From an uncultured Hormoscilla sp. (lineage in GTDB: Bacteria; Cyanobacteriota; Cyanobacteriia; Cyanobacteriales; Desertifilaceae): 64,000 nt of DNA. The stretch spans positions 1,088,001-1,152,000 of the forward strand of contig OZ001293.3 of assembly GCA_963921275.4 (NCBI GenBank). Reading direction: 5' to 3'. Below are positions 18,001 through 24,000 of this stretch, in pieces. The first letter of the stretch is position 1; each line of letters opens with the position of its first letter. Made by a program: the position numbers.

Positions 18001-21000
18001 AGTTGGCACGAGTGGGGTTGACAGAAGCGCAAGCCAGACGCAGGTATGGTAAGGATGTGTTAGCGGTGCGGCAATATTTTAAGACTGTTGAGGCTGCTGT
18101 TATCCGGGGGGAAACTACAGGTTTTTGTAAGCTGATTGGACGGCGCAATGGTCAAATTTTGGGAGCTACTATTGTCGGACCTGCTGCTAGTGAGTTGATC
18201 GGGACGATCGCTCTAGCGATGGGGCAGAAGATTAAGTTAGTATCCCTGAATCTGGATGCTATTGTCAGACCCACTCTTTCAGAAATTATTTCTCAAACTG
18301 CTCTCGAATGGAGACGCCAACGCTTCACCCACAACACCCGCAAGCAAAATTTCCTTGAAAGCTTCTTTAGTCTGCGTCGTTCTTGGTCAAATTGAGAATT
18401 GAGAATTGAGAATTGAAAAAGGTAAATTTATTTATTCATGGGGCAGGTTGGGACCATGTTTCATTCGCAATTTGCCATGTTCTATCTGATGCAAAAGCAC
18501 TGGTAACCGATCGCCGATCGCTGACACTAGCGAATCTCTAGCGACACCAGCGAAATTAGTTCGGAAAAGCGAGCAAAATCACCCCTGTTGTACGTCAGCA
18601 AGTGCGGAGGAAGCTGTGACAGAGGAAGCTATAATGGAAGAAGCTGTAGCGGAGGAAGCTATAATGAAAGAAGCTGTAGCGGAGGAAGCTGTGGCGGAAG
18701 AAGCTGTGGCGGAGGAAGCTGTAGCGAAGGAAGCTGTAGCGGAGGAAGCTATAGCGGAGGAAGCTGTGGCGGAGGAGATATCTCTTAACCATTGAAGCGG
18801 AACCTGTCAAGGTTAAAGTGGATATCTGTTAACTGTTGAAGCGGAATCTATCAACTTTAAAGTGGATATCTGTTAACTGTTGAAGCGGAATCTATCAACT
18901 TTAAAGTGGATATCTGTTAACTGTTGAAGCGGAATCTATCAACTTTAAAGTGGATATCTGTTGACATAAGAAATAGGAGATTGACATGAATCTAACTGAA
19001 AATCTAATTGGACCGTATCGTTTCTTGGCCAATTATGAAAACGAGGGGTATATAGTGCTACCCTTAGCATGGGTGAAAGACTACGTTACCTGGACATTTG
19101 GAGATTTCATCCTAGCGGGAAAAGTGAATGCTTGTAAAGTTTCTTTGAGGGCGTCGATTGCCATAATTCGGGCAGGTTTTCGGAAAAGAAGGTTTACGGT
19201 TACGAACCTCTACCTTGGAGCGAGGTAAAAGATCTAAAGAGTGAGAACGGAATTGTCGACTATCTAGACATCAGGGGGGAGTTTTGCACATTCACGTTAT
19301 GCCAACTCAAGACCGACTCTAAGCTGGCAAAGTTCTTTCCGAATGAGGTTCTAGACAAGGTAGTAAGCTATTTCCATGAGGTGTACGAGAAAGTTCAAGA
19401 TAAGACTGGGGACCATTATAGCGGGATCGTGTTGAAGGCTTCTTACCTCCTCCAGGTAACTGAAACAAATGAAAATGCTTGTCTGATCCTTCCAAAAGTG
19501 AAGATATCAGAGAAGTCGCCCAAAAAGGTGAGACCACTTCTAACCACGGTGTTCTATCCTCATAATTTTCATTGGAGCATTCCTGAGACTGGCCAGTTTG
19601 CGGAAGAGATAGAACGTCTCCAAGCTCTCCGGAAGAAAGTGTCTTAACTAAAAGAAAACTTTCCCTCGAAAGGTAAAAGAAAACTTCCCCTTTGAGGGAA
19701 AGTTTTCTTTTATAATAGAACTTGGAATCAAAAGATGGCTTTAGACCTTATGTTTATTATCCAAGTGACCCAGAATCTAGGTTTTTTATTTCCTCTCAAT
19801 ACGAGAGAGACAATAACATCTCTATATAAATCTCAGGTTGTAAGTAGATATAATTTTCAAGGCAATCTCATAGAGACTTATGCTGGATTTAGTACGAGTC
19901 TCTATACTCAAATAGATCGTTTCCTTTTTTCTCAAGCAATCAGCGATCTGCGAATAGCTATGCTTCTAGAAAGCCAATGCTCTTACTGTTCCATTAACAC
20001 CATAGCAATAGGGTATTATCTAGATTATTGCTCAAAAAAACAGCAATTACCTAAATGGAGTGAAATGCTCAAAGCCTGTAAACATTACGAAATCATACTT
20101 ATTAGAAAGAAGTGGGCTTTGTTAAAACAGCAAAACAGTTCCCGAAAACGTATAATAACTATTCCTCCTGTTACACCTACTTTAAGGGGGATCTTTAACC
20201 TTTTGTAGTAACATTGGGTTACATTAAAGGGGAGAATAAACCTTACTAGACCTTACTAGACACTATGACTTATAGAGCTTTACACAAACCTAATCAATTG
20301 ATTTACGGTACAGGGCAAACAGCAGTAGTCACGGGCTGGACTATCAAGCAAGCAGTTGCTAAACATTTGCATGTGACTGAATTTGCTGTAATTGGTCAGC
20401 TATACAGCCCGACAAGAGGCATTAGTCTGCTAGTCAGGAATTTGTTAGCTAATCCCCACGTGCGTTTCTTAGTAGCACTAAACGCTACCAAAGAAGATCG
20501 GAATGCTGGTGGAATAATCTGTTTGTTGGATTTCTTCCGCAACGGGTTTACAGAAGGCAAAAGTGATACAAATCGCCCCTGCTGGCTCATTAATTCTTCC
20601 ATCCCTGGCTACATTGATATAGAAATCGATCCTAGCATACTACTTCAGCTGCGAGAGTCGGTAGAATGGCAAGAGGTATCCTCGATCGCCCAAGCAGTCA
20701 GTCAAGTTAAGTTATACGCGCAACGCGGTGTAGTTCCACCTTGGGGTTCGCCGCAGGAATTTCCTCTGACTGAGATCGGGAGTAAGATATTGCCTGGACC
20801 CCGTTACGGACATAGAATTGAAGGTCAGACGATCGCCCAAACTTGGGTAAAGATTATTCATAGGATCAGAACTACAGGAACTCTGCGACCTACGGGTTAT
20901 GATGGCCAATGGCAAGAGTTAATTGATTTGATGGCTGTGGTGACGGATGAACCCCATGATTTCTATTTTCCCGAACCAAATTATTTGCCGGTAGAGCGTG

Positions 21001-24000
21001 CCTTTATTCAAGAGTACATTCCGCAAATTTTAGATGATGCTCCCTACCGGGAAGGAGTAAAGTATACTTACGGTCAACGCTTGCGGTCCTGGTTTGGACG
21101 AGACCAAATCGAGCAGGTGATCGCTAAATTAATTGGAGAAATTGACGCGGCTAGTGCAGTTATGTCTCTCTGGGATGTGCAGGACCACGAAAAGGGTGGT
21201 AGCCCTTGCTTAAATCATATTTGGGTCAGGGTTGTCGATCGGGAATTGTCTTTGACGGCGACGATTCGCAGTAATGATATGTATATGGCTTGGCCTGCAA
21301 ATGCTATCGGGTTACGGGCTTTGCAGCAATATATCCGAGGTGCGATCGCTTCTCGTTCTGATTATGACCTGAAGATGGGACCGCTGATTACTGTAAGTCA
21401 AAGCGCTCATCTATATGACGATACTTTTGAAAATGCCGATGGGCTGATTAAAACCCAATATGCCAAAATCTGTCAGCAACGAGACTATCACGATCCTACA
21501 GGTAATTTTGTCATTACCGTGCAGTCCGGTAAAATCCTGGTAGAACAAATGACACCTGGTTTGGGAGAGGTAGTTAACCGTTATGAGGGCAGATCCGCCC
21601 TTTCGCTTTATCGGCAAATTGCGGCAGACTGTCAAGGGATGGAAGTGGAACATGCCATGTACTTGGGCACGGAGTTGCAAAAGGCCGAGATCGCTTTGTC
21701 TAGGAAACAGGTCTACGAACAGGATAAACCACTCTCATGAATTCTTTGGGGCAGGATGATATAATGAATATGGAAGCAGAAAGACCAACATGGGACGAGT
21801 ATTTCCTGATGTTGGCTAAGCTGGCAGCTACTCGTTCAACTTGTCTCGCTTTTCCCGTGGGGGCGGTAATAGTTAAAGATCGGCAAGTTCTGGCAACGGG
21901 TTACAATGGTTCCCCGTCTGGTTCAGTTCATTGTACGGCTCAGGGATATTGCTATCCGGGGCTGAGTAGCTGCGATGCTAGTAAGATTTTGCCCTCCCGC
22001 GCTGTCCATGCTGAGGCAAATGCGATCGCCCAAGCAGCCAAGCACGGAATTTCCACAGATGGTGCCAGTATTTACGTTACCTTAGAACCTTGCCTCTCTT
22101 GCTTGAAGTTAATTATTTCTGCAGGAATTCATGAAGTTTTCTATGAAACAATTTTCAACAGTGGAGAAAAAGCCTTAGTGAGAGATTCCTTTATCTCCGA
22201 TGGCTTAGTTACCCTGAAACAAATTTGCCTCGATGAAGCTACTGCTAAAAGAGCAGCTTCATTCCTACTTCATCCCACTTCGGTTAAAAGCGATCGCTGT
22301 GGTTAGTAATTCCCTCACTTCGCTGTTAGCCCGCCGGGGGTTAAAACCCCCGGCTAATAGCTAAAGTCGGTTAAAACCGACTGAAAACCTTATGGCCCCT
22401 ATTATGCACTACAATTTGTAACATTTAAGTAATATGTAATGGTACGGCAAGATTGCAATTATCGTACATTTTGTAACATGCAATATATCTGGTGATTTGG
22501 CCAACTAAACGTATAATTTTTTATACGGATAAGAGTTTTTCGGTTCCCTTTCATCACCAAGCGCTTGTAATCATTGTGATTGAACTAAGCCAGGGAGTCA
22601 TCCCCCCGACTCGTCTTCAAAACCGGACGATCTGCTTTTCACCTCATCCGGCTCCTCAGTAATGCCACCCTTGTCATGGGTACGGCTACTACCATCACTG
22701 GCAGTTTTTTTATGTCGTGGCAGTGTTTGTGCAACAGTTGTAGGTTATCCCACCGGTCCTTACCACCTAATGAAAGCGGCTTAATGTGGTCTACTTCCCA
22801 ACTATCGCTATCCTTAAACGTTAATCCGCAATGTTGGCATTTCCCTTTTTGCATCCTGAGCAGCTTTGCTACTCTATTGCTCAATTCTGGGTTTCTGCCT
22901 AGTCTCGTGCTCCAATATGTGAGGTTCTCATCGTATGGGCTGGCTGTTCCTTTGACCTTTATATGTCTTACTATTTCTACACTTGCGTGTCGATATAGTT
23001 CCACATCCCCTTCTCGAAATCGCCATTGTCCATTTTGGCCTATTGACCAATAATTTCTGGCTATCCAACCTTTTGATTTATTAGGGTGCCTTCTTTTTGC
23101 CCATTTCCACAGGATTTCCCATAGGTAACTGTCCATATCCGAGTAAGTTTCTTTGCTTACTCCTGTCCTCAAGTAGTTGGCCCATCCTCGTATTATCGGA
23201 TTCAGTTTGCTTATCAGGGCAGCTTGTGGAGCTGCTTTATGTTTGTTTACTACTTCTGCCAGTCTTTCCTTGAGCTTACCTATGGATTTATTACTGGGTT
23301 TGATGAGGGTTTTGTAGCCTAGGGGTTTTCCATTTATACTCTTGCCGCTTCTGTACTTACTTACCTCATATTGCCTTATGTTGAATCCTAGGAAATCAAA
23401 TCCTGGTTCTTCTCCTTTTAGCATATGAGATATCTTTGTCTTTTCAGGCTTTAGTTCTAGTCCTATCCCTTTTAGCCACTCTGCTACGACCTTTTGCGCT
23501 TCTTCTATCTTTTCTTTGTCGTCGTGCATTACCACAAAGTCATCTGCATATCTAACTACTGTCAGTTTATGTTTTTCATTTTGTGTTTTTGCGAGTTCCA
23601 TTACAGCTTCTTCTAACCCGTGTAGGGCTATATTGGCTAGTAACGGTGATATGACTCCTCCCGTACCCTCTTTAGTTTCATACCATTCTTTCTTGTCTAT
23701 CACCCCGGCTTTTAACCATGCTCGTATCTGTTTACGAATTGGTGAAGTCGTATTTAGTTTTTCCATCAGCGCTTTATGGTCAATTTTATCGAAGCATTTG
23801 GCTATATCAGCATCTAAAACCCATTTGGATTTCTGTTTGATGCTATTAAATATTGCTCCGATTGCATCATGGCACCCTCTTCCCGGTCTGAATCCGTAGG
23901 AGTTACCTTCCATATACGCTTCCCATTCAGGATAACTGCGCAATTTTAAGTAACCCCTGTGTCGCACGGTCGTACATTGTCGGTATTCCTAATGGACGTT

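Follow-up and report, generated by a model that had tools for sequence, protein, structure and literature searches.

A three-domain thymidylate synthase at a cyanobacterial thyX site that may work outside the methylene-folate cycle

We analyzed a window of 64,000 nucleotides from an uncultured Hormoscilla sp., which contains an open reading frame for a three-domain protein of 491 amino acids (P0001; Table 1). Pfam recognized the middle and the end of this protein (Thymidylat_synt, residues 266-398, E 8e-14; DUF4346, residues 409-487, E 7e-23), and its match to MtrA was weak (residues 38-95, E 0.17). An AlphaFold model built from 125 sequences (pLDDT 96.6, pTM 0.92) placed residues 1-162 on the MtrA structure 5laa with Z 17.2 and an rmsd of 2.3 over 146 aligned residues, the next unrelated fold reaching Z 7.3, and the predicted middle core resembled ThyA-fold enzymes at Z 18-23.5, with about 200 residues superposed at an rmsd of 2.0-2.8. 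For DUF4346 no known fold stood out, the best values within whole-chain searches being Z 6.4 and 6.1. The genome-wide survey's note had described this architecture and a high-quality model, and both descriptions hold in our independent prediction. As that note had also stated, ThyX, FolA and thymidine kinase were not found in the host genome (96.7% complete), which has a single PF00303 match and none to Thy1, DHFR_1 or TK.

Table 1. Features at the locus of the three-domain gene (positions in the window)
Feature	Position	Strand	Remarks
Three-domain thymidylate synthase gene	20265..21740	+	491 aa, P0001; Pfam and predicted model
MtrA-fold domain, aa 1-162	20265..20750	+	Structure match and alignment
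ThyA core, short archaeal-type, aa 178-398	20796..21458	+	C315 codon 21207-21209
DUF4346 domain, aa 409-487	21489..21725	+	Carries D410, G413, H463, E470, Q486
dCMP deaminase-family gene	21737..22306	+	4-nt overlap with stop of three-domain gene
merA-like pyridine nucleotide-disulphide oxidoreductase	16914..18395	+	Upstream synteny marker, common to the G029 thyX site
Class I/II aminotransferase (cobD-like in the survey's note)	15403..16773	+	Synteny marker; real start probably later
CobA/BtuR-like P-loop protein (PRK07414)	25112..25666	-	Downstream synteny marker; adjoins thyX in G029 too
Adenylate kinase-like gene and RNase PH	26057..27227	+	Downstream synteny markers

The genes that flank the three-domain gene are the same as those around thyX in G029, so that its assignment to the thyX site stands. 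Since cobD and cobA flank thyX as well, we rejected them as a hint at vitamin B12, and no cobalamin or SAM riboswitch was found at the three-domain gene, either within the window or at 21 loci. A link to a DUF6580 transporter was likewise rejected (convergent in 5 of 7 cases, about 2.5 kb upstream in 2). The dCMP deaminase-family neighbour, which would provide dUMP, recurs at 80 of 159 cyanobacterial loci of the enzyme, and dcd, dut and tmk are also among the neighbours of the gene.

Conservation of the catalytic residues and of H463, also claimed earlier, was confirmed among the 125 sequences (C315 in 123, R335 in 123, S336 in 125, D338 in 121, N346 in 124, H382 in 125, Y384 in 123 and H463 in 124). 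In a set of 486 sequences C315, R335, S336, N346, H382 and Y384 were kept in about 100%, and D338, which we take to be the pterin-binding Asp of ThyA, in 98%. W25, Y47, N59, D410 and H463 match the catalytic residues in their degree of conservation; within the MtrA-fold domain W25 is invariant and Y47 and R58 are nearly so. When the core was compared by hhalign with ThyA of E. coli and nine ThyA proteins from CPR/DPANN, an alignment of low confidence in region 58-90, D169 alone was kept among the positions presumed to form the folate site: E58, the insert residues I79, W80 and W83, G173, F176 and the C-terminal lid are not conserved, A342 and A345 stand at positions 173 and 176, the tail is replaced, and the insert is absent or unaligned.

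The N- and C-terminal domains are colinear with MtrA+DUF4346 proteins that contain no thymidylate synthase (TS) domain (probability 99.6) and that retain the TENLG and GH motifs of MtrA. The ThyA core is thus an insertion into an MtrA+DUF4346 module which elsewhere retains the cobalt ligand of MtrA. In the three-domain enzyme S48 (82%), G52 (98%) and N59 (94%) align, by sequence, with Thr53, Gly57 and Asn64 of MtrA, which contact the nucleotide tail of the cobamide (PMC4915002). The position of MtrA Glu54 is occupied by a variable residue (P49), and the GH loop with His84 is shortened or replaced; the earlier observation that the axial His is not kept is thus borne out, Glu54 and His84 both being lost in the alignment. 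H463 is weakened as an obligatory cobalt ligand, because it is replaced by Asn in 3 of the 29 carriers without FolA, GlyA, FolD and ThyX that are described below. DUF6513 as a corrinoid domain found no family or PDB sequence support. When the N-domain and DUF4346 were predicted as a complex, the score was 0.01, and covariation (486 sequences, Meff 265) placed the N-C pairs K76-D455 and A5-G458 at ranks 22 and 48 amid much noise.

The three-domain family spans cyanobacteria, CPR, DPANN and viral contigs, and the distant homologues reported before were recovered down to about 30% identity, with archaeal bins among them. None of 44 matches in cultured phages was a full-length three-domain gene. 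A scan with alignment A4 matched cyanobacteria only.

We surveyed 201 cyanobacteria, among them 162 genomes with ThyX only and 36 carriers of the three-domain enzyme, the latter assigned by an incomplete PF00303 match lying within an open frame of 496-576 aa (a domain-by-domain check covered G000 and G191). In one order about half of the sampled genomes (36/73) carry it. Stops inside the aligned range, previously reported for 4 of 22 matches, were seen in none of the 36 core matches, and each of the 159 cyanobacterial loci reached 250 bits or more within a single frame, a score that does not in itself prove full length. The strict mutual exclusion with ThyX asserted by the survey's note softens to near-exclusion, as 1 of the 36 carriers has both. 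No other synthase was found in the remaining 35; thyX adjoins the three-domain gene at 7 of 159 loci, and at 4 of 7 Nostoc loci it is broken beside an intact three-domain gene. It is therefore well supported that the protein serves the host cell as thymidylate synthase in place of ThyX, and we are highly confident that it makes dTMP in cyanobacteria. That it instead makes hydroxymethyl-dUMP or another modified nucleotide, with dTMP arising by an unseen route, is very improbable, although AfhB (Z 23.5) and MilA (Z 21.5) outrank ThyA (Z 20.9) among the structural matches of the core, the enzyme shares no fewer than 10 of 50 CPR/DPANN genomes with canonical thyA-folA and 10 of 63 with ThyX, and the carrier G301 has no detectable thymidylate kinase and NUDIX, HIT-like and glycosyltransferase genes as neighbours. 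Besides the replacement of ThyX and the deoxynucleotide genes nearby, the absence of a TK match from G000 argues against this reading, as does N346 (100%), a dUMP-type residue that stands at the N177 position in place of the Asp of dCMP hydroxymethylase and AfhB; an Asp there presumably confers cytosine specificity.

Whether dihydrofolate must be recycled is less evident from the cyanobacteria. The earlier count of 21 of 22 carriers without FolA did not survive the larger sample, in which 28 of 36 lacked FolA and 8 had it in full length, making it more common than in ThyX-only genomes, where its near-absence (present in 2/162) had been correctly anticipated; within family f6 the figures were 8 of 15 carriers versus 1 of 11. 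Moreover, none of the 36 carriers is without both FolA and a standalone RibD_C protein: G020, G071 and G143, the three that lack RibD_C, all have FolA. For these reasons the cyanobacterial data fail to show the FolA-independent working that had been proposed. They favour ordinary ThyA chemistry, in which methylene-tetrahydrofolate supplies carbon and hydride, the two additional domains have a structural or regulatory role, and dihydrofolate is recycled by FolA or RibD_C in cyanobacteria or through folate exchange with a host in CPR/DPANN. A mycobacterial RibD_C protein reduces dihydrofolate, and in genus g9 RibD_C is kept in two carriers and missing from three ThyX genomes; G000 has GlyA, FolD, GcvT and FolC (a FolM search there gave matches of 26-27% at best among 16 SDR hits), and D338 and every dUMP residue are conserved. 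Against this, RibD_C is also present in 38 of 44 ThyX genomes, and W25, Y47, N59, D410 and H463 are conserved like catalytic residues. The presence of RibD_C is expected from de novo folate synthesis, according to PMC1971073, and the portions available of PMC8237569 and PMC11765544 make no mention of RibD-type reductases. Even on a conservative reading, standalone RibD_C is a candidate for the long-missing cyanobacterial dihydrofolate reductase.

The Patescibacteria (n = 181) provided a control that speaks for FolA-independent working. Among 74 carriers of canonical ThyA a DHFR_1 match was found in 72, GlyA in 71 and FolD in 37 of 37 tested, so that import appears insufficient for the canonical enzyme, whereas the 14 carriers of the three-domain enzyme had full FolA in 0, GlyA in 4 and FolD in 3 cases, with one weak RibD_C-type match. 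Across CPR/DPANN carriers, GlyA was kept in 14 of 43 and FolD in 13 of 43; FolA, GlyA, FolD and ThyX were all unfound in 29 of 43, and 33 of 50 showed no DHFR-fold protein at all. These genomes are related to one another and are bins for which completeness figures are lacking, and p-values therefore overstate the effect. FolA occurred in 12 of 50, and at 10 of 10 fetched loci it adjoined a canonical thyA. The 29 carriers are spread over several bacterial and archaeal clades in the protein tree, and all keep C315, R335, S336, D338, N346, Y384, W25 and Y47. We rejected the idea that GlyA neighbours point to a methylene donor, because 2 of 3 confirmed loci (5 had been clustered earlier) also hold canonical thyA-folA. 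As canonical ThyA accompanies FolA, GlyA and FolD and the three-domain enzyme mostly occurs without all three, gene absence in these metagenome bins suggests independence from the whole methylene-folate cycle, beyond FolA alone. Ordinary ThyA chemistry is hence rather unlikely, and the three-domain enzyme probably needs no recycling of dihydrofolate by another enzyme.

One carrier genome, G301, is a single contig of 1.136 Mb with 50 tRNAs covering 20 amino acids. It gave no match to FolA, ThyX, GlyA, FolD, GcvT/P/H, Fmt, PurN, the transformylase half of PurH, MnmE/G, MetH, TK, MetF or Fhs, and has MetK, dUTPase, NrdDG and a dCMP deaminase beside the three-domain gene. Cobamides are used in such carrier genomes: G301 encodes three B12 radical-SAM proteins, and G209 and G251 the B12-dependent NrdJ. 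G209, which lacks FolD and GlyA, has retained Fmt, Def and a PurN-like protein, a gene set that suggests import of loaded folates and agrees with ordinary ThyA chemistry. MetK was unfound in the 5 further carriers besides G301, which would therefore have to import SAM.

The absence of FolA (0/14) would also follow if methylene-tetrahydrofolate provided the carbon and the MtrA+DUF4346 module, through a site for flavin or NAD(P)H, supplied the hydride or re-reduced dihydrofolate; a ThyA fold would then give a result like that of ThyX, or the enzyme would contain a reductase of its own other than FolA. The nearest cores in cultured phages are annotated as M6/YuA-type 'thymidylate synthases' and 'pyrimidine hmase', proteins that we take to be dUMP hydroxymethylases returning tetrahydrofolate; AfhB binds FAD, to judge from PDB entry titles; and Pfam labels DUF4346 'PterinBD', a domain that TIGR00284-type proteins carry joined to a pterin-binding barrel. 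This explanation is nevertheless unlikely, as it does not account for the 29 of 43 carriers in which GlyA and FolD are missing together and leaves the methylene donor without a source, and the N-domain matched no flavin- or NAD-binding family.

The reading that we prefer, with not quite an even chance, is a dTMP synthase that uses a ready-made methyl group, from methylcobamide or SAM, rather than oxidizing methylene-tetrahydrofolate. Cys315 would attack C6 of dUMP, as in ThyA, and the C5 enolate would accept the methyl group. Its donor would be bound in the MtrA+DUF4346 module and would most likely be either a base-off/His-off methylcobamide, which SAM or, where MetF exists, methyl-tetrahydrofolate would recharge, or SAM itself in the old nucleotide pocket. 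Removal of H5 and elimination of the Cys would free dTMP. Tetrahydrofolate would not be spent as reductant and no dihydrofolate would be formed, so that DHFR, GlyA and FolD would be unneeded. Within methyl transfer, we consider a cobamide relay roughly as likely as direct use of SAM. PMC5954106 describes methylation of uracil C5 by TrmA with SAM via a Cys adduct, and PMC8992657 the use of base-off/His-off cobalamin by TsrM for polar C-methylation. Since AfhB, the best structural match, was solved with FAD according to its PDB titles, the ThyA fold is able to change its cofactor. Several observations point away from methyl transfer, namely the loss of MtrA Glu54 and His84, the retention of D338 in 98% of sequences and of GlyA in 14 of 43 carriers, MetK unfound in 5 of 6, possible folate import, incomplete bins, the formyl-folate users of G209, the missing Tmk of G301, the enrichment of FolA in cyanobacterial carriers, and the lack of a riboswitch at the gene.

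Databases already annotate the family as thymidylate synthase. We found no study of the three-domain protein in a literature search outside subscription papers and bioRxiv supplements, and nothing relevant on DUF4346, thymidylate synthase with MtrA, MJ locus tags or AfhB. As ThyA and ThyX both require methylene-tetrahydrofolate (PMC5954106, Table 1), methyl transfer would represent a new dTMP route in genomes unable to make or recycle this cofactor; metabolic reconstructions would need revision for CPR/DPANN and for roughly half of one cyanobacterial order, and carrier cells would be insensitive to antifolates at the dTMP step. We tentatively propose, at somewhat less than even odds, a third class in which a ThyA fold within MtrA+DUF4346 methylates dUMP from methylcobamide or SAM, without folate. 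It would explain how T is made in filamentous cyanobacteria, in the phages of these and in many cells of CPR/DPANN, and give DUF4346 a function.

Among known systems, the SAM-dependent m5U methyltransferases TrmA and RlmD, and TsrM, would be alike in the proposed chemistry, but their folds and substrates are unrelated, and no sequence or structural match to them was found. ThyX occupies the same locus and has an unrelated fold; its turnover has no need of FolA (PMC9931769), but it requires methylene-tetrahydrofolate, whereas many three-domain carriers are without GlyA and FolD. The top family match of the core is TIGR03283 (thy_syn_methano; E 4e-35 over residues 185-389, 9.5e-44 for the G301 protein), as ordinary ThyA chemistry would suggest. 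It is a single domain of about 200 aa whose short core likewise has no canonical folate insert; the three-domain enzyme, with 491 aa and two extra domains, stays below its curated cut-off of 174.55 bits (121.1; G301 149.3). Methanogens rely on a separate reductase to recycle their pterin. Canonical ThyA (E. coli, L. casei; EC 2.1.1.45) shares the fold (Z about 20) and the equivalents of C146, R166, S167, D169, N177, H207, Y209 and Y94, but R126/R127 are A296/S297 in the cyanobacterial enzymes, and its coupling to FolA, GlyA and FolD in Patescibacteria is not seen with the three-domain enzyme. MilA, T4 dCMP hydroxymethylase and AfhB (9iqu/9iqc) lead the structural matches to the core, at Z 21-23.5, but have 14-18% identity, a single domain, (d)CMP substrates and a product other than dTMP (for AfhB, by entry titles); phage dUMP-hydroxymethylase-like proteins reach 26-35%. 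ThyA-fold hydroxymethylases and AfhB are not known to oxidize folate. Finally, MtrA and the TS-less MtrA+DUF4346 proteins (NF002128-like) share the N-domain fold, the tail-pocket residues and the colinear N- and C-domains; the TS-less proteins keep Glu54 and His84, have an N-terminal Cys cluster and occur in ArsR, MerC and thioredoxin contexts, whereas the three-domain enzyme has lost both of these residues and contains a ThyA core as an insertion.

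The 491-aa three-domain protein encoded in the window corresponds to the only PF00303 match in its genome (96.7% complete), in which Thy1 (ThyX), DHFR_1 (FolA) and TK (thymidine kinase) gave no match. This agrees with the genome-wide survey's note, which had described it as the sole synthase of a genome without these three proteins. The domain order given there, an MtrA-like N-domain, a ThyA core and DUF4346, was likewise borne out by the Pfam match to DUF4346 and by a structure model built from 125 sequences (pLDDT 96.6, pTM 0.92). In structure comparisons, residues 1-162 matched MtrA (Z 17.2) and residues 178-405 matched ThyA-fold enzymes, AfhB being the best (Z 23.5), followed by MilA (21.5) and L. 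casei ThyA (20.9). The best NCBIfam match was the methanogen family TIGR03283, with a score under the family cut-off, and the nearest named homologues (93-95% identity) come from Hormoscilla records. The genome also possesses GlyA, FolD, GcvT, FolC, Fmt, MetH, MetK and MetF. The 157-aa ORF just upstream had no Pfam/NCBIfam match and was unaligned in the three closest related loci. The intron-type gene listed below recurs as 143 tblastn pieces across the genome, and more Rfam group II matches lie in the window between 34343 and 63150. A 274-aa ORF at 12909-13733 (-), presumably transposase-like, interrupts a large gene at 11622-14694, which we take to encode a repeat-rich protein of the calcium-binding type.

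Features in the window (by position or residue) and in compared loci
Feature	Location	Strand	Remarks
Three-domain synthase gene	20265-21740	+	491-aa ORF
Thymidylate synthase match, partial	aa 266-398		Pfam
DUF4346 domain	aa 409-487		Pfam
dCMP deaminase-family gene	directly 3' of synthase ORF, 4-nt overlap		Pfam/family match
157-aa ORF, 35% GC	19735-20208	+	just upstream of synthase; single copy
Group II intron gene (RT/maturase/HNH), broken into two ORFs	22639-24343	-	between dCMP deaminase and cobA
Cobalamin riboswitch	40007-40151	+	Rfam RF00174, 59.9 bits; 18 kb from synthase gene
RibD_C, GNAT/FemAB-like and standalone 127-aa DUF4346 genes, within 5 kb	G000:C1:2966051-2971109 (L092:7905-13113)		same genome, outside the window
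thyX broken beside three-domain gene	L021, L027, L034, L041		Nostoc loci
thyX intact beside three-domain gene	L029, L031, L060		Nostoc loci
Short ThyA-fold gene of G209, behind dCMP deaminase, facing three-domain gene	L262:3279-6564

Carriers among 201 cyanobacteria were recognised by a partial match within an open frame of 496-576 aa, and two of them were checked domain by domain. By this criterion 36 genomes held the three-domain gene, 2 a canonical ThyA and 164 ThyX, and every genome had at least one of these. The proposed mutual exclusion with ThyX thus held in 35 of the 36 carriers and failed in one, G191, which has both; a further genome, G195, combines ThyX with a different short ThyA-fold protein. 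That the gene stands at the thyX site was confirmed by the cyanobacterium G029, where thyX sits between the same flanking genes. In 159 cyanobacterial loci, which include some genomes twice, the neighbours were dCMP deaminase (80), dcd (44) and dut (19). In seven of these loci, all from Nostoc, thyX itself adjoins the three-domain gene, and in four of the seven it is in pieces, which looks like a replacement under way. In cyanobacteria the three-domain protein behaves as the cell's thymidylate synthase, and we regard a product other than dTMP as very improbable.

The survey had further taken the cyanobacterial carriers to point to a FolA-independent synthase, and here our data lean slightly against it. 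Full-length FolA was found in 8/36 carriers, in 2/162 ThyX-only genomes (G191 and G195 set aside) and in both canonical ThyA carriers. All eight FolA-bearing carriers belong to one family, with FolA in 8 of its 15 carriers versus 1 of 11 others. Five folA loci of the Nostocaceae type were retrieved, and in none of them does folA adjoin the synthase. A standalone RibD_C protein (C1:2966051 in the window's genome) was present in 71 of 80 genomes searched, the 80 being made up of the 36 carriers and 44 ThyX genomes. It occurs in 33 of the carriers (in pieces in three), and the remaining three hold FolA; no carrier among the cyanobacteria is thus without a candidate reductase. This favours ordinary ThyA chemistry served by RibD_C, FolA or imported folates, an explanation that we consider possible, if unlikely. 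As stated in PMC1971073, de novo folate synthesis requires a reductase with either synthase, a known gap in cyanobacteria; since RibD_C is also present in 38/44 ThyX genomes, the cyanobacterial pattern cannot decide on FolA independence. RibD_C was missing or a fragment in 5/10 FolA-bearing genomes tested and missing in 5/70 others, and it is a candidate for the cyanobacterial dihydrofolate reductase.

Patescibacteria supply the within-phylum control that the cyanobacterial comparison lacks. The 181 genomes compared were an even draw of 180 and the centre, G209, itself a carrier; 92 of them match PF00303: 74 canonical, 14 three-domain, all confirmed by domain profiles, and 4 short others. DHFR_1 matched in 72/74 canonical carriers (some weakly) versus 1/14 three-domain carriers, the latter, G251, being weak and best scored as RibD_C. 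GlyA was found in 71/74 versus 4/14, and in 144/181 overall; without G404, an unpublished genome among the 74, the canonical counts are 71/73 for DHFR_1 and 70/73 for GlyA. GlyA was also unfound in 24 further Patescibacteria of the 181 with neither three-domain gene nor canonical ThyA. Short ThyA-fold genes with no or a weak DHFR match also occur in G330, G375 and G378, and G213 (L254:1492-3306) has a FolA-GlyA fusion, one 605-aa ORF directly behind canonical thyA. A second set of 50 of the 80 CPR/DPANN carriers included 12 with FolA, 8 with a RibD_C domain and 33 with neither, canonical thyA having been sought genome-wide in the first Patescibacteria set only. Here canonical thyA adjoins folA in 10/10 folA loci fetched, and GlyA was present in 11/12 FolA holders, 4/8 with ThyX and no FolA, and 10/30 others. 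FolD was sought in 80 genomes and found in all of 37 higher-scoring canonical carriers (omitting G404, G360 and the two without DHFR, G379 and G417) versus 13 of 43 three-domain carriers, comprising the 14 and 29 picked for lacking FolA and ThyX; all 13 hold GlyA. FolA, GlyA, FolD and ThyX were all unfound in 29 of these 43, of which three have a RibD_C-type protein. The 29 are scattered over several clades, with GlyA-positive carriers lying among them, and all keep the active site (H382 in 28/29, H463 in 26/29). Incomplete bins do not readily account for unlinked genes being lost together. Yet these genomes are bins without completeness figures, related ones do not count as independent cases, and FolA, GlyA, FolD and ThyX are often missing from DPANN in any case.

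In one carrier, G301 (a single 1.136 Mb contig with 50 tRNAs for 20 amino acids), we found no match to any of the folate-dependent queries (GlyA, FolD, GcvT/P/H, Fmt, PurN, the PurH transformylase half, MnmE/G, 5-formyl cyclo-ligase, FolA, ThyX, MetH), nor to TK, MetF or Fhs. Thymidylate kinase was likewise unfound, which speaks against dTMP synthesis by the three-domain protein in G301. It has MetK, dUTPase, NrdD/NrdG and three B12 radical-SAM proteins, and a dCMP deaminase gene adjoins the three-domain gene. G209 (main contig 867 kb) showed no GlyA, FolD, GcvT, FolA, ThyX, TK or MetK; MetK was unfound in 5/5 carriers tested. G209 holds B12-dependent NrdJ, dUTPase, a Tmk-like protein, SAM-dependent methylases and a second short ThyA-fold gene. 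Fmt, Def and a PurN-like protein are also kept there without FolD or GlyA. Both SAM and formyl-folate are apparently imported by G209, and this lends the import explanation continued weight.

To fit the gene pattern, the carbon donor should depend neither on GlyA/FolD for its synthesis nor on a reductase for its recycling, which favours a ready-made methyl group. We therefore tentatively prefer, over three rivals, a methyl transfer in which dUMP activated by Cys315 would accept the group from methylcobamide or SAM, bound in the MtrA and DUF4346 module. Donor, cofactor and product are inferred here, unlike the fold, the residues, the gene replacement and the co-occurrence, which were observed. 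By alignment, the dUMP machinery of ThyA is intact. Of what we take to be the canonical folate site, the W80/W83 insert, E58, G173, F176 and the C-terminal lid are without counterpart; D169 has one. The methanogen ThyA family has the same short core, so the lost residues alone do not exclude a pterin donor. We consider a methylene donor combined with an internal redox module doubtful. Positions 296-297 (21150-21155) correspond to the two phosphate-binding arginines of ThyA, R126/R127 in E. coli. Cyanobacterial proteins of the family have Ala/Ser here and those of CPR/DPANN mostly Arg-Arg, and S297 covaries most strongly with S313. Measured against the nucleotide-tail pocket of MtrA, by the residues named in PMC4915002, the three-domain protein retains S48, G52 and N59; MtrA Glu54 and His84 are lost, and W25, Y47 and R58 are fixed in the fusion.

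The accessory domains also occur together without the ThyA core, in NF002128-like proteins of about 390 aa from many bacterial phyla (Cys-cluster, MtrA, DUF4346; L282-L360, P0317-P0335). These keep the Glu54 and His84 motifs and fold like the MtrA structure 5laa (Z 22.0). Their neighbours in 79 loci (ArsR 35, thioredoxin-like 20, DsbD 20, metal ATPase 9, MerC 8) lead us to guess that they possibly form a cobalamin-dependent system of metal or metalloid methylation or demethylation. Both domains are colinear between the two kinds of protein (profile alignment, prob 99.6), so the ThyA core is an insertion into an older module. The three-domain family comprises 473 clusters (50% identity, E <1e-30) and extends to CPR and DPANN bins and 131 viral stretches. 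In 80 viral loci kept (L361-L440), nblA lies near the full gene in 31 and class I ribonucleotide reductase genes are often nearby, so these contigs are probably cyanophages; no folA was found within 6 kb of the gene, and no cultured phage record carries it in full.

Databases already label the protein thymidylate synthase, and a literature search found no study of it. Two points are new: where its accessory module came from, and that, with a control inside one phylum, it is uncoupled from the methylene-folate cycle. Two sources describe comparable chemistry: TrmA methylates tRNA uracil from a ready-made methyl group via a Cys adduct (PMC5954106), and TsrM, with cobalamin lacking an axial His, methylates carbon by a polar route (PMC8992657). 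The three-domain enzyme, for now best placed as a ThyA variant, may turn out to be a third class of synthase beside ThyA and ThyX.
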